Assembly: GCA_041740355.1 (NCBI GenBank)
Contig: JBGSMD010000030.1
Location: 32,001-96,000, forward strand
From: Bdellovibrionota bacterium
Lineage (GTDB): Bacteria; Bdellovibrionota_C; UBA2361; CALJRW01
Length of the DNA: 64,000 nucleotides
Direction of reading: 5' to 3'
Position 1 is the first letter of the stretch. Each line of letters begins with the position of its first letter. A program made the translations under genes and the position numbers. A model generated the notes under the pieces. That model was given only the letters and a program-made list of their open reading frames with translations. It did no database searches and had not been told where the DNA came from. Positions 8,133 through 25,354 of this stretch are shown in pieces.

Positions 8133-9131
8133 ATGAATATTAGTATGTTAGATAGCGAAAGTCTAAATAAATTTGAAAATAAGTTTGAGCAACCTCAAAT
8201 ACTTAGCGATGAATTCTTTCAGCCTGCGGCCATAACTGACCCAGGTTGCGAACGAGAACTCAATGAGGACCGTTATGCAGTGATTGAATCAGCTTCAGGC
8301 TTAGTTTGGGTAGTTTGTGATGGCATGGGTGGAGTTAAGGGTGGTGAGCTTGCCGCACAACTGGTAATCGATTCTGTTAAAAGAACATTAGATTCTGACG
8401 TACAGTTAAAACCGGAAGACGCTTTAAGGGAAGCATTTGCTGAAGCTAATCGTATTGTAGTGTTGCGCAGGCAAAACCAAGCCTTTTCACAAATGGGAAC
8501 TACCGCGGTAGGAGCAATTTTTCAAGATCGTCAAGTAACAATTGTTAACATTGGTGATTCACGAGCATATCTAATTAGCGATGGTCGAATTAAACAGCTT
8601 ACCGAAGATCATACTTATGTTCAGCAATTAGTTAAGTCTGGACAGTTGCGAGAAGAAGAAGCTTTGGAACATCCCCAAGCTCACGTCTTAACTAGAGCAG
8701 TAGGATCAGATCCAACTTTAAATGTTGAATTACATAATTACTGGATTTGGGATGTAGAATCACCGAGTGATCAAGATTACTTACTTTTTTGTACTGATGG
8801 TTTGTACAGTATGATTACAGATCAAGAGATTCTTGATCTAGCTTTAAAATTTCCTCCTCAAATTAGCTGTAGTCAAATGGTTGAATTAGCTAAAGAGCGC
8901 GGAGGATATGATAATATCACTGTAGCAGTAGTGCCACTCGTGGGTAAGCTAAGAAAAGCGCCACCTGCAGGATATGTCTTACCTCAGGTAAAGAAAGAAG
9001 TGGATAAGAAGAGTATGAGTATAGAAGCTTTGAAACCTTTTATTCTTAAGAATTTTTTAATGATAGTTGGACTAAGCTTAATCGCTTTGATTATCGCAGT
9101 AGTCTTGATTTTATTAGCATTAACTAGGTAA
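8133..9131 (+). CDS. PP2C/PPM (Stp1/PrpC-type) Ser/Thr phosphatase with C-terminal TM helix
   Basis: NEDR, VCDGMGG, MGTT, IGDSRAY, LTRAVG, CTDGL, GGYDNITV; hydrophobic C-terminus. Confidence 0.95.
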   Translation: MNISMLDSESLNKFENKFEQPQILSDEFFQPAAITDPGCERELNEDRYAVIESASGLVWVVCDGMGGVKGGELAAQLVIDSVKRTLDSDVQLKPEDALREAFAEANRIVVLRRQNQAFSQMGTTAVGAIFQDRQVTIVNIGDSRAYLISDGRIKQLTEDHTYVQQLVKSGQLREEEALEHPQAHVLTRAVGSDPTLNVELHNYWIWDVESPSDQDYLLFCTDGLYSMITDQEILDLALKFPPQISCSQMVELAKERGGYDNITVAVVPLVGKLRKAPPAGYVLPQVKKEVDKKSMSIEALKPFILKNFLMIVGLSLIALIIAVVLILLALTR

Positions 9132-9136: not shown

Positions 9137-10159
9137 ATGAGTAAAGAAAATAATGATAAAGCTGCTCGCGCACGAAATAAGACGGTAATGCTGACTCCAG
9201 ATATTGCCAATCAGATGCGTTCTAGGTTAATGACAGGAACTCATCGCTCTGGAAGTACAGAAAAATTAGACACTGGTTTAATTAACCAAGTTCGCGAAAA
9301 TTTTGGTGCTCCCCAAACTCGGGAAAGAGATACTGAAGATAAGCAAACACAAATTATCGATTCAAGTAGGTTTATGAATCAATTGCCAGCAATTGAGGAG
9401 GAAACAGAATTAGAGGTGAATTTTTTGGATGCATTAAAGTCACGTGAGACACCGCGTTCGCCCGAAACTAGAAATGCACCTGTGGTTCAGATCGATAAGT
9501 TAGATTTTGATGTTGATGAGCCAGAAGTAATCTTAGCACCAGTTGAACAGCGCTCCATAATTGAAGAAGATTTTGTGGCACTAGAAAATTTGGATGATGA
9601 TTTCACCGAAGATTTAATGTCAGTAAAACAAACAAGAATTAGCCCAGAGCCGGAGTCTTATAGAATTGAGATTCCAGAAAATAATTTTGAAGAGGAGATA
9701 AAAATGAATCAGACAGTTGGAAGTTTAAATACAGATTTAAAACGCGGAATTCCTAGTAGCCCAGTGAAGCAAGCGGGAGTATCAGAATCGCAGTGTCTTA
9801 ACGGCGATATTATTAAGTGGGAAAAAGAAACACCGCTAGTCGGATTCCTGGTCTCATTTGATGGAAATCCTAAAGGGGACTTTGTGATTTTGCGTAATGG
9901 ACGTCTGATCGTTTCCGCGGATCAGTCAGACAAGGGTAATTTACTGGTGATTAATGATGAGTCTGTCTCTCCGATGCATGCTATAATCAGAGTATCAGAA
10001 TCAAGCATCGTTGTTCTGGATCAATTATCAGAGAATGGGACAAAGATTCAAAAAGCAGATGGCGCGACAATCGAATTATCAGGTGATAAAGCTAATTTAG
10101 AACACGGGGATACACTTTCATTTGGGGATCGAAATTATAAGGTCTGTGTTCTATTCTAG
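9137..10159 (+). CDS. FHA-domain protein (C-terminal FHA, long acidic low-complexity N-terminus)
   Basis: LVGFLVSFD..G.F..L, DESVSPMHA, DQLSENGT, LEHGDTLSFG. Confidence 0.85.
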   Translation: MSKENNDKAARARNKTVMLTPDIANQMRSRLMTGTHRSGSTEKLDTGLINQVRENFGAPQTRERDTEDKQTQIIDSSRFMNQLPAIEEETELEVNFLDALKSRETPRSPETRNAPVVQIDKLDFDVDEPEVILAPVEQRSIIEEDFVALENLDDDFTEDLMSVKQTRISPEPESYRIEIPENNFEEEIKMNQTVGSLNTDLKRGIPSSPVKQAGVSESQCLNGDIIKWEKETPLVGFLVSFDGNPKGDFVILRNGRLIVSADQSDKGNLLVINDESVSPMHAIIRVSESSIVVLDQLSENGTKIQKADGATIELSGDKANLEHGDTLSFGDRNYKVCVLF

Positions 10160-10615: not shown

Positions 10616-10627
10616 TTTATATAAGTA

Positions 10628-12121
10628 ATGAACTTGACAGGAGAGCATACATTTAATTTACAACCAGGAGCGGTAATTGCTGGTCGCTTTGAAATACTAA
10701 AGGCTTTAGGGTCAGGTAGTATGGGATTGGTTTATGCCTGTCGTGATCGAGAATTCTCAGGGAGAATTTTAGCGGTTAAAGTTCTGTTTCCTGAAGTAGC
10801 CAACGATCAAGTTTCCATGGCCCGTTTTCGCAATGAAATTGTTGCCTCTTATAAAGTTTCCCACCCCAATGTAATTCGTTCGTTTGAGTTAGTTCGCGAT
10901 GACGATTTGATCGCCTACACAATGGAACATATTGATGGTGGCACGCTGCTAGAATTCATTAGCGCAGATAAACTAATTGATCTTAATTTTGCTATTAAGC
11001 TGATGATTCAAATGTGTGCAGGGGTTCAAGCAATTCATGATGCGGGTATTGTGCACCGTGATTTAAAACCAGAAAATATTCTCTTGACCAATGAAAACTC
11101 CGTTAAAATTGCCGACTTTGGTATAGCTCGAACGGCTCATGGGCCAAAGCTTACGGAACATGGTGGTGTTGTTGGTACTATTGATTATGTTAGTCCCGAA
11201 TACATCTTAGAATCCAAAGTAGATTGGAGGTCAGATATTTATGCCCTTGGAGTTCTAAGTTATGAGTTAGTTACTGGGCATGCTCCGTTTCGTGGCGATA
11301 GTGTATACAGTACGATGACTAAACGCTTAAATGAAGATCCAGCGCCTCCAAGTTCGATCCGAGCGGAATGTTCCCCTGAATTAGATCATATTATCTTAAA
11401 GGCATTAGCTCGAAAAATTGATGATCGCTATCAATCGGCAGCGATCATGGCTAGCGATCTGGTTAAAATTTACCGCGAAGATCATAATAGTCCGCTATCA
11501 ATTAATAGTACTGCTTTGGTTAATGCCGATCCCACTAAGTTTAAGGGGCCCATTTTGGATCAAGAAGCAGTCGAGGCATTAGCTCCTCCGCTCCCGGAGT
11601 TAAGTAGCGTGCCAGGGGATTCTGCAACTACTCCGAAAAGAACGCGTTCCCGAACTGATTCACATGTAAAAATTAATTTCCAACCCGTTAATAGTACTAA
11701 TGACTCTGATCGTAATACGTTGAATCAGCTTAATTTGGCTAAGACCGCAACAATTGAACCAGGAGTTATTGATATTGCAGCTTATTATCATAATCGAGTT
11801 AATGATAATTCCAAGATGGAAAGTGTGATTGATCGCTCTATGAATCGTAGTATGACAAGTCCCAATAATCTTTCGGAGTCAATTCAGATTAATACTGGAA
11901 GTATCAGTCAAGAAAGGCTTAGACAACTGAATAGAACGTCGTTTTCATCAAAGGTTAAAAATCAATTCCAGAGACTTATATTATTGTTCATTGCTTCTTT
12001 AGCAATTGTCTTAGGACTAGCTAGTGGTTATTATTTAATTAATTTTTTGTTTGGACCTGAAGATATTTTTCAAGTTTTGGAATCTTTAATACTTAGAATT
12101 ACTAAAATAGTTGGATTATGA
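10628..12121 (+). CDS. Hanks-type Ser/Thr protein kinase with C-terminal TM helix
   Basis: LGSGSMGLVY, AVKVL, HRDLKPENIL, DFGIA, GTIDYVSPE, SDIYALG all intact. Confidence 0.97.
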   Translation: MNLTGEHTFNLQPGAVIAGRFEILKALGSGSMGLVYACRDREFSGRILAVKVLFPEVANDQVSMARFRNEIVASYKVSHPNVIRSFELVRDDDLIAYTMEHIDGGTLLEFISADKLIDLNFAIKLMIQMCAGVQAIHDAGIVHRDLKPENILLTNENSVKIADFGIARTAHGPKLTEHGGVVGTIDYVSPEYILESKVDWRSDIYALGVLSYELVTGHAPFRGDSVYSTMTKRLNEDPAPPSSIRAECSPELDHIILKALARKIDDRYQSAAIMASDLVKIYREDHNSPLSINSTALVNADPTKFKGPILDQEAVEALAPPLPELSSVPGDSATTPKRTRSRTDSHVKINFQPVNSTNDSDRNTLNQLNLAKTATIEPGVIDIAAYYHNRVNDNSKMESVIDRSMNRSMTSPNNLSESIQINTGSISQERLRQLNRTSFSSKVKNQFQRLILLFIASLAIVLGLASGYYLINFLFGPEDIFQVLESLILRITKIVGL

Positions 12122-13275
12122 AATTATTAATTATCGATATTTCTGCTGAAGCACAGGCTAAGTGTGCCAAAAGAATTGAGACCTTTCACCGCAGTGATAT
12201 GGAAAGCCTTGATTTGCAAGTTCAACTAGTTGGCCCTGCTGATTATATTTCTCGTGTAAATGAAGTAGATGTTTTAGTTTTAGGCGCAGGGCTTGGAGAA
12301 AAAGCAATTAATATTGCCCGTCAAGCTACTTCGATGGTGCCATGGCTGCATGTAATCATGTTCGTCAATGAAACAGCGTATGGGGGAGGAGCTTTTCGGG
12401 CAGCCCATTCTGCTGGAGTTCGAAAAGTGTTTCCAGATAATGCTACCCCCCTAGATTTCTTGCAAGAACTGGTGGCAATACATGCCGAATTTAGACGTTC
12501 AGGTAGAACTCGAGATGGAATCGTTATTGCGGTAACGCATGCCAAGGGTGGCGTGGGAGCGACTACTATGGCAGCAGGTTTAGCCGAAGTTTGTTCTGCC
12601 TTTCGTCGTCGAACAATGATCTGGGATTTAGATGTTGAAACTAGAGATTTAAGTCGGGGCTTAACTGTGAATGGAGCAGAAGCAAAAGTGGTTAGTGCTT
12701 GGGTTAATGGTAGTCGTGAGGTTACTAGAGAATCATTAAATGATGCCTTAATTCCAATAAGCAGTGACGTTTCAGTTTTGATGCCACCGGATCGCATGGC
12801 GGAATCAATGGATTTAGTATGCCATACAGATAGTATTAACTTAGTACAGCGAGTCATGGAATTAGCTCGAGTATTATTTGAAGTTGTGATTGTAGATACT
12901 GCCGGTCGAATGGGTCCGGCAACTGGAGCTGTCCTTAGAAATGCAGATATAGTTTTAACAGTAATTGATGACACAGTGTTAGGTTTAACAGCAGTAGATT
13001 TGTATCTGAGCTATATTAAAACCTTGGTTGCAGATATCAATCGAGTGAGATTTTTACTTAATCCATATTCCGGTGCCTTGTTGGATATGAATCAAATAGT
13101 TTTAGCTTTGAATGAGCACAACTTACCAGATAAAGCCTGGAGCTTGCCGCCAGTTCCGAATGATCCGAAAGGCTCAGTGTGGCCAGGAACAGGTCGGACA
13201 ATTTATAGTATGGGACAAAAAGATACTCGCAACACTTTAGAGGCTATCGCCACTGAGTTAGGGTTGATTAATTAA
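12118..13275 (+). CDS. cpaE: CpaE/TadZ-like pilus assembly protein (receiver-like domain + MinD-like ATPase)
   Basis: Deviant Walker A AKGGVGATT, WDLD, VIVDT; ATGA overlap with the kinase; Tad context. Confidence 0.85.
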   Translation: MKLLIIDISAEAQAKCAKRIETFHRSDMESLDLQVQLVGPADYISRVNEVDVLVLGAGLGEKAINIARQATSMVPWLHVIMFVNETAYGGGAFRAAHSAGVRKVFPDNATPLDFLQELVAIHAEFRRSGRTRDGIVIAVTHAKGGVGATTMAAGLAEVCSAFRRRTMIWDLDVETRDLSRGLTVNGAEAKVVSAWVNGSREVTRESLNDALIPISSDVSVLMPPDRMAESMDLVCHTDSINLVQRVMELARVLFEVVIVDTAGRMGPATGAVLRNADIVLTVIDDTVLGLTAVDLYLSYIKTLVADINRVRFLLNPYSGALLDMNQIVLALNEHNLPDKAWSLPPVPNDPKGSVWPGTGRTIYSMGQKDTRNTLEAIATELGLIN

Positions 13276-13295: not shown

Positions 13296-14183
13296 ATGTC
13301 TAGACATTTTGGTGGAGTTCCAAGTAAACGTGGACCTGATCAGCGAACATTAATAATTGTTGTAGCTAGTTTCTTTATGATCATTCTGATGGTTTTAGCT
13401 GTAATGCTAATAAAGAAAGGTGGAAATGATAATTCGGTTCAAGTTACAACAGATAATACTGATATTAACTTAGCAAATGTTTTGGTACCAATTCGACGAA
13501 TTGAAGTAGGTGAAAAACTATCGCCAGATATGTTTAGAATTGAGCTACGATCACGTTTCGGGTTATCGGAGGGAGTTATCGGTGATATGGCCTCAATTGA
13601 AGGATTCTATTCACGATCACTAATCTTACCTGAACAGCCATTGTATCGAGATTACTTAACTCAATATGGAAGTAATAATCCAATCGTTCAAGAAATTCCT
13701 GCAGGTTTCCGAGCTGTTTCTATCCGTGTGGATGATACTTCCAGCGTTGAGGGTTGGATTAGAAAAGGTTCGATTGTTGATGTGCAATTAGTTACTAAAG
13801 TTAATGCCCAAGATATCTTAAAAGTAATCGTGGAAAAAGCAAAAGTACTATCTGCTGAAAGAACGGTAGTAGCTAATACTCAACAAACTGTGGATAAGGT
13901 TCCAACCACAGTAACTTTATTAGTTAATTCAGATGACGCCAATAAAATAACTTTGGCCTCAATGAATGGACGCTTAAACTTAGTTTTGCGTAATCCTGAT
14001 GATGATATTCAAAACCCTGCATCTTCAATCGACATGCCAAATGTTATGAATTTGCAACGTAATCTTCCACAAATTGAAGCTAAGCGAAGTTGCCCGGGTC
14101 GTTTAGTTGTTGGTGGAGAAACTAGATGCATCTGTGCTAACGGCGACATGATTGAAGCAGATGAAAATGGCAAGTGTAGCTAG
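13296..14183 (+). CDS. cpaB: Flp pilus assembly protein CpaB/RcpC
   Basis: N-terminal TM, SAF domain, IPAGFRAVSIRVD..SSVEGWI..G..VDV, VTLLV, G.L.LVLRNP.D. Confidence 0.92.
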   Translation: MSRHFGGVPSKRGPDQRTLIIVVASFFMIILMVLAVMLIKKGGNDNSVQVTTDNTDINLANVLVPIRRIEVGEKLSPDMFRIELRSRFGLSEGVIGDMASIEGFYSRSLILPEQPLYRDYLTQYGSNNPIVQEIPAGFRAVSIRVDDTSSVEGWIRKGSIVDVQLVTKVNAQDILKVIVEKAKVLSAERTVVANTQQTVDKVPTTVTLLVNSDDANKITLASMNGRLNLVLRNPDDDIQNPASSIDMPNVMNLQRNLPQIEAKRSCPGRLVVGGETRCICANGDMIEADENGKCS

Positions 14184-14194
14184 AGTTTCAAGTA

Positions 14195-14228
14195 TCTTGG
14201 AGACTTTAATTAATTAAAGTCTCCAAGA
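14195..14228. promoter_or_regulatory. Perfect 34-bp palindrome between cpaB and cpaF (hairpin or operator)
   Basis: TCTTGGAGACTTTAATTAATTAAAGTCTCCAAGA equals its own reverse complement. Confidence 0.6.
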
Positions 14229-14252
14229 ATAATTTTATGAGTTAATTATAAG

Positions 14253-15770
14253 ATGTCAGATAAAGACAACGACTTAAGCGGATTATTCTCAACTAGAAGT
14301 AGCCGTGCTAGGTTAACAACTGATGGAAAAGGAGCTGAGCATACTAGTGGAGGTTCCTCTTCTTCGTCGGAAGTGGCAACACCTTCTACTAATCCAACTG
14401 GCAACAATAACAATCGCCGTGATACACAAAAACTGAGTGGTCAACTTGGTGCCCGAGTGGGTTCAAGTGGAGCGATGAGATCGTCTAGCTTATCTACGCT
14501 AGGAAATACAATCCTGAAGGAAGTCCGTCGAGAATTAGGAAATGAATTCAACATTTCCGATGAGCAAGGTTCTGATGTTAGTGAAGCTAATATCACTCGA
14601 GCTGTTGATCGTGTTTTGAAAAAACGTTCTGAGTCATTAGATGATTTAGAAAAAGCAAATATTATTATCCATCTTCAAAAAGATTTATTAGGATGGGGGG
14701 TTTTACAACCATTAATTGATAATGTGGAAGTTACAGATATTCACGTCTATGATTATCGTACAGTAGTTTTACAAAGAGGTAAAAACAGTGAAATTACCGG
14801 AATTAACTGGCCAAATCATCAGGCTTATGTTTCTTTTATTGATCGAGTTTTATTAAGACTTGGTAAGTCCTTATCTACTGCGCAACATACTATTGATGCC
14901 TCATTTGTAAATGGAATACGTATTTGTGCAGTTCATGAAAGTGTTTGTGGTGCAAAAGGACCTTACCTGTGTATTCGTGTTCCAAGGATTGTCGATGCTA
15001 CTCTTGATAGTATTGTTACTTATCAAGTTGCCCCTCCAATAATCGTGGATTATTTAGCTTCCTTAACTCGTTCGGGACTTTGCACGATCATGCTAGCAGG
15101 TGAGACTGGTACTGGTAAGACAACACTAATGCGTTGCTTGGCATCTCAGTTTGGACCAGATGAAGCAATTGTCAGTGTAGAAGATACTCCGGAATTAAAC
15201 TTAGTTCACCCATTTTATCGTTGTTTAGTTTCTCGTGCTCCAAACTCGGAAGGTATTGGGGAGGTTACTTTGCAAGAACACATTAAAACAACTCTAAGGA
15301 TGACACCGACTAGAGTTCTCTTAGGGGAGATGCGTACTCCCTTAGCCGCCGAAGCCTTCTTAGAATCTGCTCAGACTGGTCACGTAGGAATGTCCACAAT
15401 CCACGCACGTAATGCCAAGGAAACATTAGTTCGATTAGAAAGCTTATTGGGACGGGCCCAGAAATCAGTTTCTGTAGATATTATTAGGCAGCAAATTGCC
15501 TTAGCTGTAGATTTAGTTATTTGGTTAGTTCGCGAAAAAGGTAGTGGTAAACCTAGGATCGCCGAAGTTGTTGAAATCGGTCATTATGTGGAAGGACAGA
15601 TTCAAGTTAGGCCAATGTTTACTTTAATCAAACCTGGTCAACAGCCTGTTTGGAGAGTTGAATCTTGGGCCAGTAACTTTGAGGAAGTATTAGCGGATGA
15701 TAATATTTTCTTAGGTAATTTACCAACTGAAGTTACTCTAAATACCGCCGGCTCTGGTGGACTTCGTTAG
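14253..15770 (+). CDS. cpaF: CpaF/TadA-family secretion ATPase
   Basis: Walker A GETGTGKTT, Asp box VEDTPEL, Walker B LRMTPTRVLLGEMR, His box TGH..MSTIHA. Confidence 0.93.
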   Translation: MSDKDNDLSGLFSTRSSRARLTTDGKGAEHTSGGSSSSSEVATPSTNPTGNNNNRRDTQKLSGQLGARVGSSGAMRSSSLSTLGNTILKEVRRELGNEFNISDEQGSDVSEANITRAVDRVLKKRSESLDDLEKANIIIHLQKDLLGWGVLQPLIDNVEVTDIHVYDYRTVVLQRGKNSEITGINWPNHQAYVSFIDRVLLRLGKSLSTAQHTIDASFVNGIRICAVHESVCGAKGPYLCIRVPRIVDATLDSIVTYQVAPPIIVDYLASLTRSGLCTIMLAGETGTGKTTLMRCLASQFGPDEAIVSVEDTPELNLVHPFYRCLVSRAPNSEGIGEVTLQEHIKTTLRMTPTRVLLGEMRTPLAAEAFLESAQTGHVGMSTIHARNAKETLVRLESLLGRAQKSVSVDIIRQQIALAVDLVIWLVREKGSGKPRIAEVVEIGHYVEGQIQVRPMFTLIKPGQQPVWRVESWASNFEEVLADDNIFLGNLPTEVTLNTAGSGGLR

Positions 15771-16235
15771 CTATAACTTTAAATTTCAGTTCATTTGGTG
15801 ACTAACTTTACAAGCTAAGTTTCCTTGGGAGATCAATTTTTCTATAAAGAAAAATTCTTCTATTCGATTGTAGCTCCTAAAGAATTGAAACTAAAGGTTA
15901 TTCCCATTCATCTTATTTAATTTTATACTGTATAAATAGTAATTGCCTGAAGTCTTTTTCAAAAAAGTTTTTTGAGAATCTTTGTGGAGTTACTATTTTA
16001 GATTGTATTTAAAATCATTGACTTGATTCTCAAGCGCGAATTGCTTGAGGGTGAGCAAAGGGTCTTTCAAACTTGGATTTTTCTCTTTTGTAGTAAAGCT
16101 AAGGTAGAAATAAAGATTGATCAGCCCAAGTCCTAAAAGGTAATTTTAAAAACTTAGCATCTTATTGCTAGGTGTAATGATTAGCTTTATCAAAGCTCAA
16201 ATTAAAGTTTTGTGTCTTAATTAATATTTTCCGAA

Positions 16236-17207
16236 ATGAATATCCTGATCCTTGGAATAATGTTTTTAGTTTGTTTGATTGCGGGGGTAATTGTCTACCT
16301 TTTATTTGGCATGACCAAGTCTAAAAAGACATCTAGCAAAAGCCAAATCCAAAATATTATGCAGGCTCAACGTAGTAATGGTAATTTGAGTCGGGCAGAA
16401 CAAAGAAATAATAAACTTGATAAGGTTTTATTATCAACAGAAAAAAAAGTTACAACTTCCGGTGATATGACTTTGCCGAAGAAGCTGCGTTATGCCAGAT
16501 GGAAGATGCCTCCGATTGTGTTTATTGTTTTACAAGTAGTTATAAGTCTAGTTGCAGTTTTTATGGCTAATATTTTTTTTGATTGGCCAATTATCTGCGT
16601 TTCTATTTTCTTAGGTCCGATTATCATGAATTCGCTAGTCGGTATGGCGATGAACCGAAGATTTAAATCCTTTGACAAAGATTATCCTTCCTTTCTACTT
16701 AACGTTGTAAGTATGTTACGAATAGGGATGAACGTAGTAACCGCAATCCAATCTGCTGCCGAAGGATTAAATCCCGAGTCCTTAGTCCGAGAAGAAGTTA
16801 CTTTGATGCTTGATCGTTTAAAACTTGGGGTGTCGGAAGATAAGTCAATTGGTGCCTTTGGTGAGGATATCAATCATCCGGAAATTGAGCTTTTTGTTCA
16901 GGCTGTAATTTTAAGTCGCCGCTTAGGGGGTAACTTATCAGATACGCTGGATCGCTTGTCTCAACAAGTACGTAAACGTCAATTTTTCCGTTCTTCCGCG
17001 GAGGCTGCAGTATCCTTACAGAGAGGTTCGATTTGGGTAATCCTAGGGATCATGGTTTCTTTAGAAGGGTATATTTTAGTAACCAGTCCGGATTTAATTA
17101 TGACCGCGATCAATGATGATTTTGGTTGGCTAGTTTGGCAAGGGGCTGTTGTGACAATCTTTATTGGAATTTTATGGGTGAGACAAGTTACAAAAATTAA
17201 AGTTTAA
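16236..17207 (+). CDS. tadB: TadB-like inner-membrane platform protein (T2SSF domain)
   Basis: RR...FD..YP.FL......LRIG, GGNLSDTLDRL; TM pattern. Confidence 0.88.
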   Translation: MNILILGIMFLVCLIAGVIVYLLFGMTKSKKTSSKSQIQNIMQAQRSNGNLSRAEQRNNKLDKVLLSTEKKVTTSGDMTLPKKLRYARWKMPPIVFIVLQVVISLVAVFMANIFFDWPIICVSIFLGPIIMNSLVGMAMNRRFKSFDKDYPSFLLNVVSMLRIGMNVVTAIQSAAEGLNPESLVREEVTLMLDRLKLGVSEDKSIGAFGEDINHPEIELFVQAVILSRRLGGNLSDTLDRLSQQVRKRQFFRSSAEAAVSLQRGSIWVILGIMVSLEGYILVTSPDLIMTAINDDFGWLVWQGAVVTIFIGILWVRQVTKIKV

Positions 17208-17210
17208 TCA

Positions 17211-18140
17211 ATGGATGTTAATACACTACTAATAATCTTAATTGCTTTTTTTATCCTGATATTCTTTGGAGTATTTGCTTATTTATTTTTAGGTCGGAAG
17301 AAAGAAAGTAATTTAGCGAACTTGATTAAAGTTACTAGGCCTAATGCTGGCAAGATTAATCGAAATTCAGTTAAAGAGAAAATGGCTTCGGCAAATGAGG
17401 ACATTCGTGAGATCACTGAAACTCAGCGCAGAAATTATTCGAAGAAAAAAGTTAAAGTTACGGAAGAGGAGCGTTATTATCATGCCGGCCTGTTAAGTAA
17501 TAAGCAACGTGATAATTTCAAAAAATTCCGATTTTATGCACCTATTGTTGCGGCTGTTATTTTGACGATCTTCACTTATTTTGTGTTAGGGAAAAATCTA
17601 GCCTTATTTGGCTTAGCGATTGGAGCTTTAGCCGGAGTAGCGCTTCCAGGTTTTTATTTAGATCGCTTGATCAGTAAGCGTTACGAAGAGATAATGTATT
17701 ATTTGCCACTTGTAATTGAGCAAATTGCCATTGGTGTAAGCAGCTCGCTAGATATTGGCCCCTGTCTTCAACGCGTAATCCAAATGGCAGATGAACGAGA
17801 TTCCCATAATGTGGTGACAGAATTAATTTTTCATGCCGAGCGCTATATCCGAACAGGGGTAAGTTTAGAAGAAGCAATGAATGAGATTGGTACTAAGTCA
17901 GGTCACCCAGAATTAAAACATGCGTTTATGGCTCTTGCTCAAGTTTCTAAGCATGGGGGAGAGATCTCTCACCAATTACAAGAATTAGCAAGTGCGGTTT
18001 CAAGTCAACGAGAGACTCAGATTGATTCCAAGATTAAGCGCTTGGAGTTAAAAGCAACTGGGCCAGTTGCATTGGTTTTTGTAGCTTTTATGGGAACTTT
18101 AATGATCGGTATTATGATCAAAATTAAAAAGAATTTATAA
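17211..18140 (+). CDS. tadC: TadC-like inner-membrane platform protein
   Basis: R..EI...LP..IE.....V.S.L, L.Q..K.GG.I...L, K...PV; follows tadB. Confidence 0.85.
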   Translation: MDVNTLLIILIAFFILIFFGVFAYLFLGRKKESNLANLIKVTRPNAGKINRNSVKEKMASANEDIREITETQRRNYSKKKVKVTEEERYYHAGLLSNKQRDNFKKFRFYAPIVAAVILTIFTYFVLGKNLALFGLAIGALAGVALPGFYLDRLISKRYEEIMYYLPLVIEQIAIGVSSSLDIGPCLQRVIQMADERDSHNVVTELIFHAERYIRTGVSLEEAMNEIGTKSGHPELKHAFMALAQVSKHGGEISHQLQELASAVSSQRETQIDSKIKRLELKATGPVALVFVAFMGTLMIGIMIKIKKNL

Positions 18141-18298
18141 ATGTTTAGCCTTGGTAGTCAACGAATGAAAAAACTTGAAGTGTCTTTGCTGTAGTAAAAG
18201 TACAGTTGTGACTTGAGCATTTTTTTTGAATTCGACCTACACTCTAACTTAAAAATTAACATAAAGGCATAACCTTAGTGTTACTATGATGAATTTGA

Positions 18299-20380
18299 AT
18301 GCTTAAATTTTTAAGAAACATTAATAGCGATTTTTTCGTAGCTCTATTCGTATTGTGCGTCGCTGCGCTGCTATTTGTTCCCCTTCCTACAGCACTATTA
18401 GATGTTTTAATTGCTGGGAATATCGCCTTTTCTTTACTTCTTTTATTGATTGGTCTTTCTCTTAACAATGTACTCTCCCTCCTTACATTTCCCACCTTAT
18501 TACTGCTATCAACATTATTTCGACTGAGCTTAAATGTCGCATCTTCCCGTCTAATTCTTAGTCAAGGAGATGCTGGTCAAGTTATCCATTCATTTGGTAC
18601 ATTTTTAATTCAGGGTGAATTAGTAGTTGGGATAATTATTTTCTTAATGTTAACCGTAATTAATTTGATAGTCATTACTCGTGGAGCGTCACGAGTATCG
18701 GAAGTAGCTGCCCGCTTCACCTTGGATGCTTTGCCAGGAAAGCAATTAACGATCGATTCCGATTTACGGACAGGTTTAATCTCCGCGGAGGATGCTAAAA
18801 AAAGACGTGAGGATTTGCGTAAAGAGAGCCAAGTATACGGTTCCATGGACGGAGCGATGAAATTTGTTCAAGGTGATGCCATTGCTGGAATCTTTATAAT
18901 TTGCGCTAATATGTTTGGGGGGATGTATCTTGGACTACGATCGGGCTTAAGTTTCTCTGAGGCACTTGAAACCTACACTGTCTTAACAATTGGAGATGGA
19001 TTAGTTACGCAAATTCCGGCATTGTTAGTTTCTAGTTGTGCGGGATTTGTGGTTACACGAGTCTCTACGGAAAATACTTCAACGCTAAGTTCAGATTTAG
19101 TAAGTCAGTTGCTTCGCAATCGTAAAATCCTTTTCACTGCTGCTATTGTAACCGCTTTTATTGCCTTCTTGCCAGGATTGCCAGCATGGCCGTTCTTATT
19201 TGCAGCATTGGTATTTGTATTCTTAGGGTTTATTATTCGATTTGACTCTCAGGGTAAACAGATTCTTTTTTCCAATAGTCCCCAGCTTAGACAAATAAGT
19301 GGCGGCAGTTCAAATTCTAAGATGTTGACGAATTCTACAACTGGCGCCTCAAATTTAAAAATTTATTTATCTGCCGATTTAATTAAAATCTTTGGAAATA
19401 ATCAGACTTATTATTTTGATTGGTGGAAACAAGAACAGCAGCAGTTTCATGAAAACTATGGAGTTGATTTACCAGATTTTCAGTTAATCCTTCGTCCCGA
19501 ATACTCGGGCGGAGAATTTAATTTAATTAATAAAGATTATTCCTTTTATCATGGAAACATCTCCGCGCAAACTTGCTACATAGAAATTGCCAGTGAGCAA
19601 TTAGCTTGTTATGGAATTAAAGTAATTAAGTCTGTCAGGGCACCAATTTCCCAACGGCGAGTATCTTTGGTCTTGGATTCTAATTTAATTCGTAGTTTGA
19701 AAGCTAATTCTCAATTAGTAGTTTTTGATGCATTGCAGTTTATCGCGCTACAAGCAAAAGATTTCTATTTTAGAAATCCCGAGCAACTTTTTACTTTAAC
19801 TAATATTCATTTATCAATCAAAGAGATCGAAAATCATTTTCCAGGATTATTTACGGAATTATTTGCTAATAATTTCTTTAATTCAGCCAGATTGTTGGAG
19901 CTTTCCAATGCCTTATTTCGATCCGGTCTTTACTACAAAAATGTTCGGACTCTTTTAGAGGATCTTGCGATTTATAGTTCCTCTTATGGTAAAGATCTAA
20001 TTCAAGCTAATGAATTTAATATTTCGGACATTGTCGACTTCTTACGAATGCAAAATAAGCGCCAGATTGTCGCTAGTCACTTAACACATAAAAAAAGTTT
20101 AAAAGTCATTTATGCCGGAGCAGAACTAAAACATTCTTTACTGCAAGCATCCAAACAAGATCGAAGTGTAAAAAAACAACTACTGAAATCTTTAGAAACC
20201 GTATATGATAGTTTAGCTGCTAAATCGAATTACACGGTTATGTTACTTGTGCCGAACGAATTGCGTCTAAAGTTAAACTCATTATTAATTGAGAATGGCT
20301 TAACCTATTCAGTGATTAGTTACAATGAAATTGACCCGGCTGTTAGTATTGAACCATTAGGAACTTGGAATTATAGTTAG
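18299..20380 (+). CDS. sctV: FHIPEP-family type III export gate protein, SctV(LcrD)-like with divergent cytoplasmic domain
   Basis: FPTLLL.STLFRLSLNVASSRLIL, RVSEVAARFTLDALPGKQ, GSMDGAMKFVQGDAIAG, LTIGDGLVTQIPALL, VISYNEI. Confidence 0.9.
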   Translation: MLKFLRNINSDFFVALFVLCVAALLFVPLPTALLDVLIAGNIAFSLLLLLIGLSLNNVLSLLTFPTLLLLSTLFRLSLNVASSRLILSQGDAGQVIHSFGTFLIQGELVVGIIIFLMLTVINLIVITRGASRVSEVAARFTLDALPGKQLTIDSDLRTGLISAEDAKKRREDLRKESQVYGSMDGAMKFVQGDAIAGIFIICANMFGGMYLGLRSGLSFSEALETYTVLTIGDGLVTQIPALLVSSCAGFVVTRVSTENTSTLSSDLVSQLLRNRKILFTAAIVTAFIAFLPGLPAWPFLFAALVFVFLGFIIRFDSQGKQILFSNSPQLRQISGGSSNSKMLTNSTTGASNLKIYLSADLIKIFGNNQTYYFDWWKQEQQQFHENYGVDLPDFQLILRPEYSGGEFNLINKDYSFYHGNISAQTCYIEIASEQLACYGIKVIKSVRAPISQRRVSLVLDSNLIRSLKANSQLVVFDALQFIALQAKDFYFRNPEQLFTLTNIHLSIKEIENHFPGLFTELFANNFFNSARLLELSNALFRSGLYYKNVRTLLEDLAIYSSSYGKDLIQANEFNISDIVDFLRMQNKRQIVASHLTHKKSLKVIYAGAELKHSLLQASKQDRSVKKQLLKSLETVYDSLAAKSNYTVMLLVPNELRLKLNSLLIENGLTYSVISYNEIDPAVSIEPLGTWNYS

Positions 20381-22777
20381 ATGAGTGATAATTTAATCCC
20401 CCATACCCCCGGACCATATACGGATTATTTTCAGATCTCTTATAAAATTGCGGAGACTTTTGGTGCAAATTTATATAGTGGCATAAATGTTGATAGTTCC
20501 AAGCCCACTGTACTCTGGGTTTCCAAATTTCCTGTTAATTTAACTTCTGCGGAAGCTCAAAATCTATTGTTGCAAATGCACAGTATCGATGTAATTGATC
20601 CTCCAGTTGGACCATTTGATACCTATGGAATTGATTTTCATGGTTTAGCATTTCTAAGTTTTACTGAAAAAATATCAAATAATTTAAATCAATCACGCGC
20701 TAATACAGAAGAGATGGAGCGAAGGCTGTTTAAGGCCATTCGATTGGTTCATAAAGCGCATCAAGCAAATTGTTGCTTTGGAGATCTTAACCCCAACTCT
20801 TTTTGGTTAAATAATTCTGGAGGTGTTGAATTAACCTCTGTCCTAAAATTACCGATGACATTTCAAAAAAGTGATCTGGCGAGCTTTGATTCACAGTTGA
20901 TTGCTTATCTGGCACCGGAGGTTTTTGAAAAGGTAGTTAGCACCCAAAGTGATGTCTACTCCTTGGGGATGATTGCTTTCTATCTAATCCTCAATCGTCT
21001 TCCCGTGGAAGTTGAATTAACGCCAGAAGGATTACCAAAAATTGATTATACTTTAGAAAATACTTTCAAAAAACAATTGCCTCCCTACTTATTGGAAGTA
21101 TTAGAGAAAGCAATTTCCTTGGACCCGGCGTTGCGATATCAGACAGCCGGCGAGCTAATTGAGGCTTTGGTTGCTATTAATGAACGGATTAAAGTGGGAG
21201 ATAAACGGGAGACTCCCGCAACTGAGCCAATAGTAAATATTCTTCCAGCGATTCGTTCAAAAGATCAAATGCAGATTGAAAAATTTCAAGAATCTTTAGC
21301 TAAACGTTTAGCTAATAATGCTTATAAAATTATCTTTTCTGTCATTGCATTTGTAATTTTAGCATCCTTAGTAACTGGGTTAATGTTTTATCGCCATTAT
21401 CGCCAAACGTTAGCTCGTGAGATTAATGAAGCAACAGCGCCATTTTCAGGAGGTAATCCTGAACTGACTAAGTCCATTGCGCAAATTTCCAATATTAGTG
21501 CTGAACTCAAAGATAAGATTGCCGAGATTCAGTCTTTGGCAGAATCTCCCGATCCCTTAAGTTATGGTTTATTAGTTGCCAGTGCGGACAATAGCAAAGA
21601 TGATTTGCTAGTTAAAAACTCTCAGTCAGCCATTATCCAAAAATTGCAAAGTTCTGGGCAAGTACTGACAGCGATTCAACTTGAACAATGGTTTCGCTAT
21701 GGAAATAAGGATATTAAAAGTCCAGTCTTCGGGAAGGTCTTAAAACTTCTTGACCCAGCAATGCCTTTAAAAAATAAACTTTCAGCAATTAATAAATTAA
21801 ACAGTCAAGATTTAAATATTTCTACTCGTCTTGCTGCGGCACTATATTTTGATTTAAAACAACCGGATAGTTTTAAAGAATTATTAGTTCAGCAAATTGG
21901 GAAAGGTTTAGGTATTCCCGCAGCTGAAAAACTTTCTGCTTTGGCTTTAATCATGCAACATGAAGCTTTACATCAGATTTTTTCAGAACAAATTAAATCT
22001 AATTATTCAAAACTTTCGGAATATGATTTAAAGGTTTTGTTAGAATATTTTGCTAAACGTGATCAGCAAGTATTTAAAGATTTAGTTAAGATAATAATTG
22101 AACAAAATATATATCCTAAACTTAAAGCCCGTTTTTTAGTGGCAATTATTAGTAATAAAGATCTTAGTATCGATCTAACAGAAGCTCTGACTATGGTGGC
22201 AGTTGATAAAGTTGATGCATCTTATCTAAATCGAATTGTTACATGGCAGTCACCACAGGCAGAAGAATTACTATTTTCTTTAATTTCAATCTTAGAAGAT
22301 AACGAAGGTAAAGTAATGGTTCTTGACAGTCTAGCTATCCGAAACTTGCAATCAAATCCAGGGCAAGGGTTTGTTAAATGGTTAAAGGAAAATAAGTGGG
22401 AGCAAAGGCAAAAATACCTAGATTCCTTAGCTACTTTAGCTACTTCAGTAAACTTTACTGAACAAGAGATTTTATCAGCATTAAAAATATTTCAAAAAGA
22501 CTTACAAGATACTGGGTTGCAAAATGCATTATTAGCTAGTGCCGATGATCGCTTACCATTATTATTTATTGAAAACTTCTCGGAGAGTATTGGCTTAGCA
22601 CAAAAACTGAATTTACTTAAACATCCAAATACTGAAATTCGCAAAGCAATTATTAAACGACTGGAAACAAATGACGTTGGTGCAATGAAGTTGATCGTTG
22701 ATGCCTATTCTCTGGAGCAAAATGAAGAGTTAAAGAATATCTATAAAGAGAAGTATTGGTTTGTGAAGAACCGTTAA
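20381..22777 (+). CDS. Membrane-anchored pseudokinase with large C-terminal helical domain
   Basis: Kinase C-lobe motifs kept (AYLAPE, SDVYSLG, P..RYQTA); catalytic loop GDLNPNSF; no DFG, VAIK Lys or Gly-loop; one TM at ~aa 315-336. Confidence 0.85.
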   Translation: MSDNLIPHTPGPYTDYFQISYKIAETFGANLYSGINVDSSKPTVLWVSKFPVNLTSAEAQNLLLQMHSIDVIDPPVGPFDTYGIDFHGLAFLSFTEKISNNLNQSRANTEEMERRLFKAIRLVHKAHQANCCFGDLNPNSFWLNNSGGVELTSVLKLPMTFQKSDLASFDSQLIAYLAPEVFEKVVSTQSDVYSLGMIAFYLILNRLPVEVELTPEGLPKIDYTLENTFKKQLPPYLLEVLEKAISLDPALRYQTAGELIEALVAINERIKVGDKRETPATEPIVNILPAIRSKDQMQIEKFQESLAKRLANNAYKIIFSVIAFVILASLVTGLMFYRHYRQTLAREINEATAPFSGGNPELTKSIAQISNISAELKDKIAEIQSLAESPDPLSYGLLVASADNSKDDLLVKNSQSAIIQKLQSSGQVLTAIQLEQWFRYGNKDIKSPVFGKVLKLLDPAMPLKNKLSAINKLNSQDLNISTRLAAALYFDLKQPDSFKELLVQQIGKGLGIPAAEKLSALALIMQHEALHQIFSEQIKSNYSKLSEYDLKVLLEYFAKRDQQVFKDLVKIIIEQNIYPKLKARFLVAIISNKDLSIDLTEALTMVAVDKVDASYLNRIVTWQSPQAEELLFSLISILEDNEGKVMVLDSLAIRNLQSNPGQGFVKWLKENKWEQRQKYLDSLATLATSVNFTEQEILSALKIFQKDLQDTGLQNALLASADDRLPLLFIENFSESIGLAQKLNLLKHPNTEIRKAIIKRLETNDVGAMKLIVDAYSLEQNEELKNIYKEKYWFVKNR

Positions 22778-22836
22778 GCCCTGAACTCAAAGCTTACTAC
22801 TAGTTATTTTGAAATTTAAAGAGTACAGAGATTGAG

Positions 22837-22938
22837 AACCCGTCTTCGCACTACGTGCTATGACGTGGTAAACCCGTCTTTCGCATATGTGCTACAACAC
22901 GGTAAGCCCGTATTCGTACTATGTGCTATGACGTGGTT
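22837..22938 (+). repeat. Three tandem 34-bp REP-like units
   Basis: AACCCGTCTTCGCACTACGTGCTATGACGTGGTA / AACCCGTCTTTCGCATATGTGCTACAACACGGTA / AGCCCGTATTCGTACTATGTGCTATGACGTGGTT. Confidence 0.85.
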
Positions 22939-22975
22939 ACTTTCTTAATAATTTTTCAAATTATTAAGAAAGTAA
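22937..22975. terminator. Perfect 18-bp inverted repeat directly 3' of tRNA-Leu (possible terminator or processing hairpin)
   Basis: TTACTTTCTTAATAATTT-ttc-AAATTATTAAGAAAGTAA. Confidence 0.55.
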
Positions 22976-23055
22976 TGCGGAAGGAGGGACTTGAACCCTC
23001 ACGCCGAAGCACTAGATCCTAAGTCTAGCGTGTCTGCCAATTCCACCACCCCCGC
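22976..23055 (-). tRNA. tRNA-Leu(TAG), CCA not encoded
   Basis: Reverse complement GCGGGGG-TGGTGGAATTGGCAGACAC-G-CTAGA-CTTAGGA-TCTAG-variable arm-GAGGG-TTCAAGT-CCCTC-CTTCCGC-A. Confidence 0.95.
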
Positions 23056-23107
23056 AAAGAAATGATTAGGAACCACATAATAATCAATTTTTAATTTTTT
23101 ACAAGTG

Positions 23108-23207
23108 TTGTGTATGGCCAGTGTGCATTGCGCACTGGCCTTACACAAAATCACGCCGAAGCATGCTAAGCATAATTGTTCTAATCTTCAGACAATGCGT
23201 AGGCGGA
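23108..23207. repeat. Hairpin plus REP-like motif between tRNA-Leu and tig
   Basis: TTGTGTATGGCCAGTG..CACTGGCCTTACACAA hairpin (23108-23148); CGCCGAAGCAT...ATGCGTAGGCGG (23153-23206). Confidence 0.6.
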
Positions 23208-23330
23208 TTACTGGGATAAATATCAAGCTAAATGTCCAAATCCTATTTTTTGTTGATTTCTGTAACTGTTTACTATGCCAATAACTATTGGTATACCAGT
23301 AAGGAAATTTACAAAAATTAAACTAAAAAT

Positions 23331-24725
23331 ATGGACTTTAATAAACAAATTACTAACGTTAACTCAGTTACAACTGAAGCTTTAATTACAATTCCAGTAG
23401 AAGCAACTAATTCCGCATATGAGGCAGAAATCAAGAAAGCTTCAATGAAGGCTAACCTTAAAGGTTTTCGTCCAGGAAAAGCACCTCGTAAGATGATTGA
23501 AGGGATTTATGGTGGCCGTGCGCGGATGGACGCAATTGATAATGTTGCAAGAGAAGCTCTAAATAAGACAATTCAAGAGCTAGATCGCGCAGCTGACTTA
23601 ATCGGTCAACCGGAAGTTGATTTCATCAGTCTGGACCCAGCTAAACCATTAGAATTTAAAGCCACTGTTTATTTTTTCCCACGTCCAACAATCGAAGGAT
23701 ATGATCAACTTTCTGTGGCATTACCAGAAATGCCAGCAGTCGGAACTAAAGAAGTAGATGAAGCACTTAAAAGAATTGCCCATAGTAAAGCAAAACTAAC
23801 TAAAATTGAAAAACGTAAGAAAGTTCAAAAAGGGGACGTTCTTGTCGGTGTTTATCAAGAGCGGGAAGGGGATCAAGAATTTTCTGCTGAAGAAAAAATT
23901 AATATTCCTTTAGGTGATAAGTTTTTGCCAACAGAGTTAGAAGATCAACTGATTGGTTTAGAGATTGCTAAAGACTTCGAAACTACTATTTCATACCCTG
24001 ATGATAGTGATCATAAATTCCTTGCAGGCAAAGCTATCACTTACAAAATTCGCGTAGAGGAAATTATGGAGAGAGAACTACCAGAATTAAATGAAGAATT
24101 TGTAAAGGAGTTAAAGTTTCAAGATGCTGCTACTGTTGAAGATTTAAAAGCTAAGTTAGCCTCTACTATTGAGAAGGAAAATCAAAGATATTGGGAACAG
24201 AACAGACAAACAGCTATCATCCAAGCAATTTTAGATGCTAATCATTTTGATGTACCAAAGTTAATGGTGGATCAAGAGCTTAAGGCTATGTTCCAAGAAG
24301 CTTCTGGGAAAGAGCCTACCGCTGATGATTTGAATAAGGTTCCAGTTGAAGTGCAGGTTCGTGCTGAAAAGCAATTGCGTTCAGGTTTAGCTTTAATGCA
24401 AATTGCCCGACAAGAAAAATTAATGGCTACAAGAGAAGATCTTCAAAGTCATGTTGAGCAAGTAGCTGCTGATTCAGGAATGGATATCAAAATGTTACAA
24501 GACTTGTATCTTAACAACCAACAGTTGGCACAGTCCTTACAATCTGAAATTACTACTAAAAAAGTTTTTGACTTTTTAGAGTCAAAAATTAGTGGTACAA
24601 CTGTAGTCTCCAAGAAAGCTTCTCCAAAAAAAGAAGCTAAACCAGCGAAAGAGAGTAAAAAGACTGCTGCCGAGGAAGCTCCAGCTAAGCCTAAGAAATC
24701 TTCCAAAACAAAATCTAAGGAGTAA
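23331..24725 (+). CDS. tig: Trigger factor
   Basis: GFRPGKAP signature; upstream of clpP; Lys/Ala-rich tail. Confidence 0.95.
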
Positions 24726-24730
24726 ACTTA

Positions 24731-25333: not shown

Positions 25334-25354
25334 TAATCTTTACAGTTATTATAA

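Follow-up and report, generated by a model that had tools for sequence, protein, structure and literature searches.

The window analyzed here, a stretch of 64,000 nucleotides from the draft genome of a Bdellovibrionota bacterium (GenBank assembly GCA_041740355.1, contig JBGSMD010000030.1, positions 32,001 to 96,000 of the forward strand), carries at positions 18299-20380 a gene for an export gate of the FHIPEP family, which includes flagellar FlhA and SctV of non-flagellar type III secretion systems (T3SS). The open reading frame (ORF) encodes a full-length non-flagellar (SctV-type) FHIPEP protein and belongs to a conserved block with the gene order PP2C - FHA - Ser/Thr kinase - tadZ - cpaB - tadA - tadB - tadC - sctV - pseudokinase. 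In our judgment it is probably the gate of a needle-less non-flagellar T3SS-like exporter that is genetically fused to a Tad-like pilus system, and the joint operon suggests that the pilus and the needle-less secretion machine act as one unit. In Myxococcus, the mode of cooperation between the Kil pilus and the needle-less T3SS* is still a matter of inquiry, and a second, unrelated lineage in which gene order pairs Tad with T3SS genes would provide independent comparative support for a physical or functional unit, with the pseudokinase, the FHA proteins and the PP2C/kinase pair as candidates for the coupling. Moreover, the organism would represent a natural case of a conserved and selected SctV gate in a genome with no detected T3SS ATPase, and its relatives contrast, in the same genomes, a slowly evolving flagellar FlhA cytoplasmic domain with a fast non-flagellar one. 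No description of a tad-sctV operon was found in the literature, although the supplementary tables of the Kil papers might list such loci.

The source genome (G000) is a draft of 3.27 Mb in 74 contigs with 97% completeness, and the absences reported below rest on draft genomes. G001 is from the same genus, G000-G002 form one family and G003 is a distant relative. The nearest named relatives are metagenome-assembled genomes (MAGs) labelled Bdellovibrionota or Bdellovibrionales. Publications are cited by their PMC accession and for the parts of their text that were available.

A conserved operon of Tad-like pilus and export gate genes

The block comprises the following features of the window:

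8133..9131, plus strand: PP2C-type Ser/Thr phosphatase, opening the conserved block (Pfam PP2C, 66.3 bits)
9137..10159, plus strand: FHA-domain protein, the domain being C-terminal (residues 266-330; Pfam FHA, 34.7 bits), syntenic in relatives
10628..12121, plus strand: Hanks-type Ser/Thr protein kinase (STK; Pfam Pkinase, 181.5 bits)
12118..13275, plus strand: TadZ/CpaE-like ParA-family ATPase (Pfam AAA_31 and CbiA), syntenic and 52-99% identical in relatives
13296..14183, plus strand: CpaB/RcpC Flp-pilus assembly protein (Pfam RcpC, 71.4 bits; TIGR03177 pilus_cpaB, 126.3 bits, cut-off 71)
14253..15770, plus strand: TadA/CpaF-type secretion ATPase, 505 aa (Pfam T2SSE, 105.1 bits; TIGR03819, 195.2 bits, below its cut-off)
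16236..17207, plus strand: TadB-like inner-membrane platform protein (Pfam T2SSF, 49.9 bits)
17211..18140, plus strand: TadC-like inner-membrane platform protein, immediately preceding the gate gene (Pfam T2SSF, 44.5 bits)
18299..20380, plus strand: A-type SctV export gate gene, ATG at 18299, stop codon ending at 20380, 693 aa, frame intact
20381..22777, plus strand: bitopic membrane pseudokinase, 798 aa, starting right after the gate stop codon (Pfam Pkinase, 27.3 bits, below the cut-off)

The ATPase at 12118..13275 is presumably TadZ/CpaE, a name that we take from its position and family. The FHA protein additionally matches Pfam Yop-YscD_cpl with 29.2 bits, which is below the cut-off.

Orthologs of the gate, here called A-type, occur in all 41 sampled genomes of the order, which represent 21 families, with 36-46% identity (92% within the genus). 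Among 124 genomes of the phylum, matches at E <= 1e-100 were obtained for 83 of the 91 that belong to the order and for one of the 33 others, which is G064 from another order of the same class. The A-type gene is thereby present in nearly every genome of the order. Synteny was compared in 18 genomes with about 10 kb on each flank, together with two public MAG contigs and G064, giving 21 loci. TadA, TadB and TadC are encoded directly upstream of the gate ortholog in 18/18 loci of the order, tadC immediately precedes sctV in all 21 loci, and sctV is followed by the pseudokinase gene in 20 of them, the remaining contig ending 398 bp past sctV. In 15 of 18 loci a Hanks kinase homolog is encoded upstream of the Tad genes (one more locus, L045, is cut by a contig end), and PP2C homologs take the equivalent position wherever the flank extends far enough. 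The same gene order is found on the two public contigs, titled 'Bdellovibrionota bacterium' and 'bacterium'. The gap between tadC and the gate gene measures 158 bp in the source genome; gaps of 0-12 bp or overlaps are found in many loci of relatives. A scan of positions 7800-23400 returned 41 promoter and 9 terminator candidates, against shuffled expectations of 47.1 and 10.9.

The product of 20381..22777 consists of a kinase-like domain, one predicted transmembrane helix near residues 310-339 and a helical C-terminal region of about 460 aa, and its neighbours in the ESM Atlas are protein kinases. We call it a pseudokinase because an alignment of 20 orthologs contains neither a conserved lysine at the VAIK position nor HRD..K..N nor DFG. 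A complex prediction for SctV residues 350-693 with pseudokinase residues 1-300, run with alignments, scored 0.00 and speaks neither for nor against binding.

It is unlikely, although some evidence fits it, that the gate serves an independent needle-less exporter into the periplasm or the membrane and that the operon reflects co-expression with the Tad pilus under a shared Ser/Thr phospho-signal. The conserved upstream PP2C/FHA/STK module could act as such a shared switch, the sctJ/Q/R/S/T/U set is encoded elsewhere in 19 of 21 loci, and systems of the Myxo type may not secrete outside the cell at all (Abby and Rocha, 2012; PMC3459982). However, sctV is wedged between tadC and the pseudokinase gene, with the short gaps or overlaps described above in many genomes and across at least 21 families, which is tighter than usual co-regulation, and the corresponding systems of M. 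xanthus are described as functionally interdependent (PMC12075869).

Several observations concern the surroundings of the operon. Flp-type pilin genes of the source genome are located outside of it, at C2:73750-73947 (+) and C64:43569-43769 (-); they encode 65 and 66 aa with the motif KGASLVEYGLLVALIAVV, the G/ASLVEY motif of these pilins, and a Flp pilin homolog lies between tadZ and cpaB in several relatives. The pseudokinase gene is followed by tig - clpP - clpX - lon at window positions 23331-29530 (+), and these housekeeping genes also occur in many relatives at a few kb downstream of the operon, frequently behind a gene coding for about 170-190 aa, of which the source genome has a homolog at C5:33392-33940. 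At G011:C2 and G020:C5, flagellar fliP is located just about 10 kb upstream of A-type sctV, by the PP2C end of the Tad block. On two MAG contigs labelled Myxococcota, L085 (Lujinxingiaceae) and L115 (Myxococcales), a Hanks kinase homologous to the window STK is encoded two genes upstream of sctV, and because of these two contigs the linkage of kinase and SctV may extend beyond the order.

Identity and phylogeny of the gate

The gate matches the Pfam family FHIPEP (PF00771) almost from end to end, with 527.7 bits (cut-off 29.1) and residues 23-682 aligned to positions 3-656 of the 657 in the profile. Among the FHIPEP models in NCBIfam, SctV (TIGR01399) scores highest with 524.7 bits, followed by FlhA (TIGR01398) with 464.2 bits; both scores are below the equivalog cut-offs of 692.25 and 772.1, respectively. 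In comparisons with sequences of solved structures, Yersinia YscV (7alw) aligns over gate residues 9-688 with 335 bits and the cytoplasmic domain of Chlamydia CdsV aligns with residues 367-689 (E = 3.9e-8), while chains of flagellar FlhA align to the N-domain only. In a tblastn search of plasmids, matches to named SctV and FlhA covered the N-domain only, and none of 692 records covered >=80% of the query; these matches were used solely as a source of reference sequences.

The earlier note on this DNA, made from the sequence without database searches, had classified the gene as a non-flagellar FHIPEP gate, and this holds both in the model scores and in the phylogeny. Of the motifs that it listed, DGAMKFV (residues 184-190), YGVDLP (387-392), VISYNEI (672-678) and KN.R.LLE.L (KNVRTLLEDL, 547-556) are present, while the longer pattern L..L..L......KN.R.LLE.L has the wrong spacing and is not matched. 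DGAMKFVQGD occupies residues 184-193 of the membrane domain, which contains hydrophobic segments. DGAM is found in 19 of 20 A-type rows of the alignment, in eight of nine rows of the second non-flagellar type of the order, called C-type (the ninth reads DGSM), in 11/11 Myxococcota-like rows and in 21/21 other SctV rows, a count that is biased because many of the SctV rows were gathered with a pattern containing MDGAMKFV; six SctV references from tblastn, counted within the 21, are the subset gathered without this pattern. At this position four FlhA references carry DGAS and eight flagellar paralogs of the same order carry DGAA. Residue 191 (nucleotides 18869-18871) is Gln in 20/20 A-type rows, in the context KFVQGD or RFIQGD, and its counterpart is Lys in each of the 41 rows of the C-type, Myxococcota-like and canonical or other SctV groups; flagellar rows carry Arg or Lys in the four FlhA references and Thr, Ser or Ala in the paralogs of the order. 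Judged by these rows, Gln at residue 191 is a simple signature of the A-type clade.

Two trees were calculated: one of 73 rows with IQ-TREE in a quick search under LG+G4, and one of 55 rows under LG+C20+F+G4 with PMSF, from which 18 redundant rows were dropped (L100, L140, L133, L135, L095, L099, L124, L036, L046, L048, L035, L061, L063, L070, L132, L141, L123 and L144). The supports are SH-aLRT values from short searches and not bootstraps. In both trees the FlhA references and the flagellar paralogs of the order are separated from the non-flagellar clade with a support of 100. Within the latter, Myxococcota-labelled and canonical SctV form a group (98 under LG+G4, 96 with PMSF) that excludes the A-type proteins, which themselves form a clade with a support of 100 on a stem of 0.58 and 1.1, while the C-type clade is likewise supported with 100. 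A-type and C-type pair with a support of 95 under LG+G4 and 81 under the mixture model. The stem of the own genus is long (0.89 and 1.1 changes per site). By these trees the A-type proteins are a distinct clade inside the non-flagellar branch and outside all SctV groups sampled, and the gate groups neither with ordinary FlhA nor with canonical SctV, either of which the earlier note had named as grounds to refute its proposal.

Membrane and cytoplasmic domains differ in divergence but not in predicted integrity

The gate protein can be divided as follows:

18299..19258, plus strand: membrane domain, residues 1-320 (FHIPEP profile; pLDDT mostly >85; N-identity of 0.61 to other A-type proteins)
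19259..19354, plus strand: variable linker, residues 321-352 (pLDDT <50 at residues 320-349; majority-residue frequency 0.27; dN 0.26)
19355..20380, plus strand: cytoplasmic domain, residues 353-693 (SD1-SD4 fold predicted with pLDDT of about 90; dN 0.048)

Identities were counted in an alignment of 73 FHIPEP proteins, with residues 10-310 as N-domain and 362-690 as C-domain. The gate shares 0.61 of its N-domain and 0.23 of its C-domain residues with 18 other A-type proteins, and 0.48 and 0.17 with 21 canonical and other SctV proteins, in line with the earlier description of a conserved N-terminal and a diverged C-terminal part. Pairs of A-type proteins outside the own genus have identities of 0.65 and 0.30, compared to 0.70 in both domains for the flagellar FlhA paralogs of the same genomes, and pairs of canonical or Myxococcota SctV proteins with an N-identity of 0.50-0.62 have a C-identity of 0.354 +/- 0.073. 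The fast C-domain is a trait of the whole A-type clade across the order and not of a single gene. By subdomain, with borders judged from the model, the identity of the gate to its A-type relatives is lowest in SD2 (0.18) and highest in SD3 (0.32). The cytoplasmic subdomains of SctV and FlhA have roles in chaperone binding and ring contacts.

The fold itself is predicted to be retained. An AlphaFold2 model of the gate from a 121-sequence alignment has a mean pLDDT of 86.3, reaches about 90 over residues 353-693 and is unstructured solely at the linker (320-349). Foldseek aligned the C-domain model to solved cytoplasmic domains of SctV and FlhA over about 350 columns at 15-20% identity with target TM-scores of 0.75-0.79, the targets including CdsV 6wa6 (0.78), FlhA-C 6ch2 (0.76), EPEC SctV-C 7osl, MxiA 4a5p and YscV 7qij/7alw. 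The C-domain thus appears to have diverged strongly in sequence and, as modelled, not in fold, and the view that it keeps only traces of the family goes too far in light of this model and of the end-to-end alignments to Pfam and YscV.

Between the gates of G000 and G001, which are 92% identical as proteins, dN amounts to 0.049 and 0.048 for the membrane and cytoplasmic domains, respectively, and to 0.26 for the linker, with saturated dS. The gate is under strong purifying selection within the genus. The idea that the gate is under selection while its docking surface has been remodelled is borne out in that the membrane domain is far more conserved between families, but within the genus the C-domain is equally constrained. 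A change of partners, as formerly proposed for this surface, would fit a genus without the SctN/SctL ATPase and an operon shared with Tad genes and a pseudokinase.

Partner export genes on other contigs

No other T3SS core genes were found on the contig of the gate. Outside this contig, the source genome contains a second FHIPEP gene and two genes each of FliP/SctR, short FlhB/SctU and the YscJ/FliF family, distributed over three loci and annotated by Pfam:

Contig C6, set 1: FHA, FHA, SctJ, 81 aa, 331 aa, SctR, SctS, 191 aa, SctU N-part of 224 aa, 80 aa, TPR
Contig C64, set 2: three ORFs (257, 96 and 126 aa), SctR, SctS, SctT, SctU N-part of 245 aa
Contig C20 cluster: sigma factor, SctJ, 96 aa, short FHIPEP, TPR protein

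Searches with Pfam at E <= 5 gave no credible match for the cluster ORFs of 81, 80, 96, 331 and 191 aa nor for the 257-, 96- and 126-aa ORFs of C64. The 191-aa ORF on C6 is a putative SctT by position alone. PF01052 found no match in the source genome at E <= 0.001; the 331-aa ORF in front of sctR resembles clusters of the SctQ/FliN family by ESM Atlas features (0.93), and its ortholog in G003 matches PF01052 with 27.4 bits (cut-off 23.8). For these reasons we do not hold that the source genome lacks SctQ altogether.

The second FHIPEP protein, of the C-type, is encoded at the C20 locus L017:9727-11568 (-), outside the window, and has 613 aa; Pfam aligns it to positions 3-302 and 461-656 of the profile only, so that a middle segment of the cytoplasmic domain is either absent or beyond recognition. 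This form is kept across the order, and a similar one of 640 aa was seen in a MAG of the Sandaracinaceae. The non-flagellar SctU/FlhB-like genes encode the membrane part only, with 190-245 aa (L015:12098-12772 on C6, L016:9434-10171 on C64, L076:11486-12055 and L069:20-715). The two of the source genome, 224 and 245 aa, correspond to profile positions 10-205 and 3-257 of 335, and those of G003 and G040 are alike. Non-flagellar SctU is accordingly devoid of the cytoplasmic autocleaving, substrate-switching domain, while flagellar FlhB of relatives is of full length (363 aa).

The three loci are complementary in content: set 1 contains no gate, C20 has a gate and SctJ and no SctRSTU, and set 2 consists of SctRSTU only. 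In G003 the pseudokinase gene is followed by FHA, FHA, SctJ, 76 aa, SctQ-like, SctR, SctS, short SctU, 83 aa and TPR, and in G064 the order is tadB, tadC, sctV, pseudokinase, FHA, FHA, SctJ, 76 aa, 158 aa, SctQ-like, up to the contig end. The pairing of the A-type gate with set 1 is kept because of this contiguity and the complementary gene content; adjacency as the sole argument is contradicted by G040, which is considered below. The description of the gate as an orphan consequently holds for linkage alone, since its partner export genes are on other contigs and contiguous with the gate in G003 and G064, and a count of FHIPEP paralogs, suggested as a check, returned the C20 gene as a second member.

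A rather improbable reading is that the Tad machine has captured A-type SctV, which would then function independently of SctRSTU, for instance as a proton-driven gate or platform beside TadB/TadC. It would account for a linkage to tadB-tadC that is invariant (21/21) next to a linkage to sctRSTU that is rare (2/21), for the strong divergence of the cytoplasmic domain and for a genus that lost the SctN/SctL genes yet kept the gate. On the other hand, most genomes of the order have FHIPEP genes in three copies and FliP-family genes in three grades, and in every sampled one the non-flagellar members of both families match in number, two each beside the flagellar set; the contiguous genomes G003 and G064 hold sctV in one block with sctJ, sctQ and sctR; and residues that are invariant among the aligned A-type proteins are found mostly in the membrane domain. 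We take these invariant residues to be the usual FHIPEP residues.

Apparent loss of the flagellum and of the ATPase complex

It is practically negligible as an explanation that the gate is the flagellar FlhA of this organism, although it is a FHIPEP member and one homolog in the databases is titled 'flagellar biosynthesis protein FlhA'. The source genome yielded no flagellin, rod or hook proteins, FliI, flagellar-grade FliP or full-length FlhB. Relatives carry a third FHIPEP protein (about 700 aa, 30-33% identical) in a fliL-fliM-fliO-fliP-fliR-flhB-flhA-flhF operon, which groups with the FlhA references in both trees, is their flagellar FlhA and refutes this identity for the gate. By the grade of FliP, the flagellar set is present in 36 of 41 genomes of the order and absent from the family of G000-G002 and from G021. 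The flagellum seems to have been lost in a lineage-specific manner, and both non-flagellar T3SS-like sets kept.

With the FliI/SctN model TIGR01026, the five best matches in the source genome belong to two F-type ATPases, as their alpha and beta subunits, and to Rho. A tblastn search with SctN and SctL of relatives likewise returned F1 subunits and Rho only, and G001 has neither gene. In six loci of relatives that were inspected, the SctN-like gene follows a gene of about 160-220 aa, which is FliH/SctL-like in G003 (PF02108, 42.9 bits), and a murJ homolog adjoins this pair in five of the six; the source genome retains a murJ homolog without either gene. The SctQ-like gene of the C-type cluster is present in relatives and missing in the source genome. 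With SctN, the SctL-like protein and the C-type SctQ-like protein gone, the genus has lost the greater part of its cytoplasmic ATPase and sorting components; both gates, both SctRSTU sets and one SctQ-like gene are retained. The needle family PF09392 had no match in the source genome, and control genomes were equally silent, which leaves this search without demonstrated power. Only two secretin-domain ORFs were found in the genome (C54 and C46), and neither lies in the window or in a T3SS-like cluster, where a dedicated SctC would be expected. The alpha/beta pairs of the two F-type ATPases are located on C64 (about 66.5-72.2 kb) and C26 (about 18.9-22.8 kb), and the one on C64 exceeds the cut-offs of 'alternate F1F0' (N-ATPase-type) models.

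These losses, of the flagellum in the family and of the ATPase complex in the genus, together with a branch of the own genus of 0.89-1.1 changes per site, could be taken as signs of a decaying, functionless orphan relic of a lost T3SS or flagellum. We regard this as highly improbable, for it is contradicted by the intact frame, a dN of about 0.05 with saturated dS in both domains and a confident model, and by the presence of the gene in 83 of 91 genomes of the order with the partner genes retained.

Proposed mode of action and its weighing

In the reading that we favour, the gate of a needle-less exporter fused to a Tad-like pilus system, the gate would form the usual nonameric ring around SctRST and export proteins across the inner membrane, driven in this genus by the proton-motive force alone. 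The FHA proteins may couple the switching of export to Ser/Thr phosphorylation, and the exporter and the Tad-like pilus would constitute one contact-dependent machine, in parallel to Kil/T3SS*. The fast cytoplasmic domain would then track lineage-specific substrates, chaperones or regulators instead of the canonical hierarchy of needle, translocator and effector substrates. A more far-reaching version, which we consider possible but would not presently prefer, holds that the Tad-like pilus and the needle-less exporter make up the two parts of a composite trans-envelope machine whose genes ancestrally stood in one super-operon, with the order PP2C-FHA-STK-tadZ-cpaB-tadA-tadB-tadC-sctV-pseudokinase-FHA-FHA-sctJ-sctQ-sctRSTU that is suggested by G003 and G064. 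SctV would feed cargo to the pilus for delivery upon contact, the pseudokinase would sense this contact, the gate would be able to run without a T3SS ATPase, as in the present genus, and A- and C-type would together represent a deep undescribed branch of non-flagellar T3SS. If this were true, the A and C clades would bear on the origin of the injectisome from the flagellum.

A number of findings weigh against these proposals or narrow them. The joint action of Tad and T3SS components is inferred from gene neighbourhood and analogy, and the sctJ/Q/R/S/T/U set stands away from the operon in the 19 loci already mentioned. In G040 the set-1-type sctRSTU genes are divergently oriented beside the C-type cluster and not beside the A-type gene, and for this reason the pairing of A-type and set 1 is not unambiguous. 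The Tad-sctV block contains no secretin gene. A central ATPase fused to an FHA domain is a hallmark of Kil systems (Seef et al. 2021), and Pfam at E <= 0.01 detects no FHA domain in the TadA of the window, just T2SSE and P-loop families. As to the phylogeny, the sister relation of A- and C-type may be a long-branch artefact, because its support is 81 under the mixture model, and the Myxococcota rows of the trees are MAGs and Archangium contigs labelled Myxococcota, the SctV of M. xanthus itself being absent. Finally, a second FliI/SctN-family gene with 369-465 bits, next to a flagellar FliI with 573-609 bits, is present in 31 of 41 genomes of the order; an order-wide lack of a non-flagellar ATPase was rejected on this count, and the term ATPase-less is limited to the genus. 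Even there the loss of SctN could in principle reflect missing assembly, though both genomes of the genus are without it.

Comparison with known systems

With canonical SctV (YscV/LcrD, MxiA, CdsV and EPEC SctV) the gate shares the two domains, DGAMKFV, the predicted SD1-SD4 fold and an alignment over the full length of YscV. It differs by a C-domain identity of about 17%, compared to about 35% among canonical pairs of similar N-identity, by a score below the equivalog cut-off, by KFVQGD in place of KFVKGD and by a neighbourhood in which no sctW, sctN, sctO, sctF or sctC was found. Flagellar FlhA shares the FHIPEP family and the overall fold and is distinguished by a separate clade, by DGAS or DGAA instead of DGAM and, within the same order, by a C-domain identity of 70% among the flagellar paralogs compared to 30% among A-type proteins.

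In Pseudomonas aeruginosa's T6SS (type VI secretion system), the Hanks kinase PpkA, the PP2C phosphatase PppA and the FHA protein Fha1 are encoded together with a trans-envelope machine. The kinase, PP2C and FHA genes beside the present machine similarly suggest a post-translational, contact-triggered activation, here from gene content; the machine is a different one, and an additional conserved membrane pseudokinase is encoded. The threonine-phosphorylation pathway of the P. aeruginosa T6SS is mentioned in the Discussion of a Kil study (PMC8460266).

Needle-less and conserved 'Myxo' T3SS loci, in a short and a long form, were described by Abby and Rocha (2012; PMC3459982). As far as the available text of that study allows a comparison, the system reported here resembles them in being non-flagellar and vertically inherited with a conserved core, without secretin, needle or translocon genes having been found. 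The 'Myxo' loci are single clusters that include the ATPase, unlike the genes of the present system, which are scattered across several loci and joined with Tad genes; furthermore, there are two non-flagellar sets per genome here, and the phylum is a different one.

The closest parallel is provided by the Kil Tad-like pilus and the needle-less T3SS* of M. xanthus, which are functionally and spatially linked and co-localise at contacts with prey (PMC12075869). Recruitment of the T3SS* depends on Kil, killing and lysis by pilus tips need the T3SS*, and the pilus was proposed as the carrier of T3SS*-dependent effectors to the target cell (PMC12075869). Kil clusters are rich in FHA domains, KilF is described as an ATPase with a fused N-terminal FHA domain, and both Bdellovibrionales and Bradymonadales are reported to contain Kil-like systems (PMC8460266). 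According to the available text of a 2025 review, Kil and T3SS* seem to occur together in the Cystobacterinae only (PMC12428579). In contrast to M. xanthus, in which the kil clusters and mxan_2434-2464 are separate in the accounts available, the gate gene is located inside the Tad operon here; the A-type proteins fall outside the clade of Myxococcota and canonical SctV (96-98), SctU is devoid of its cytoplasmic domain, the genus has no SctN, and TadA has no FHA domain by Pfam. The FHA-rich neighbourhood of Kil is shared, with the FHA protein at 9137-10159, the PP2C and STK genes and two FHA genes in set 1. As in the published parts of the Kil/T3SS* work, a Tad-like pilus rich in FHA and phospho-signalling proteins thus stands next to a T3SS-like exporter without a detected needle or dedicated secretin gene, and the logic that we propose from genes alone would be the same, namely a contact-triggered assembly in which the pilus may offer the route for T3SS-dependent cargo.

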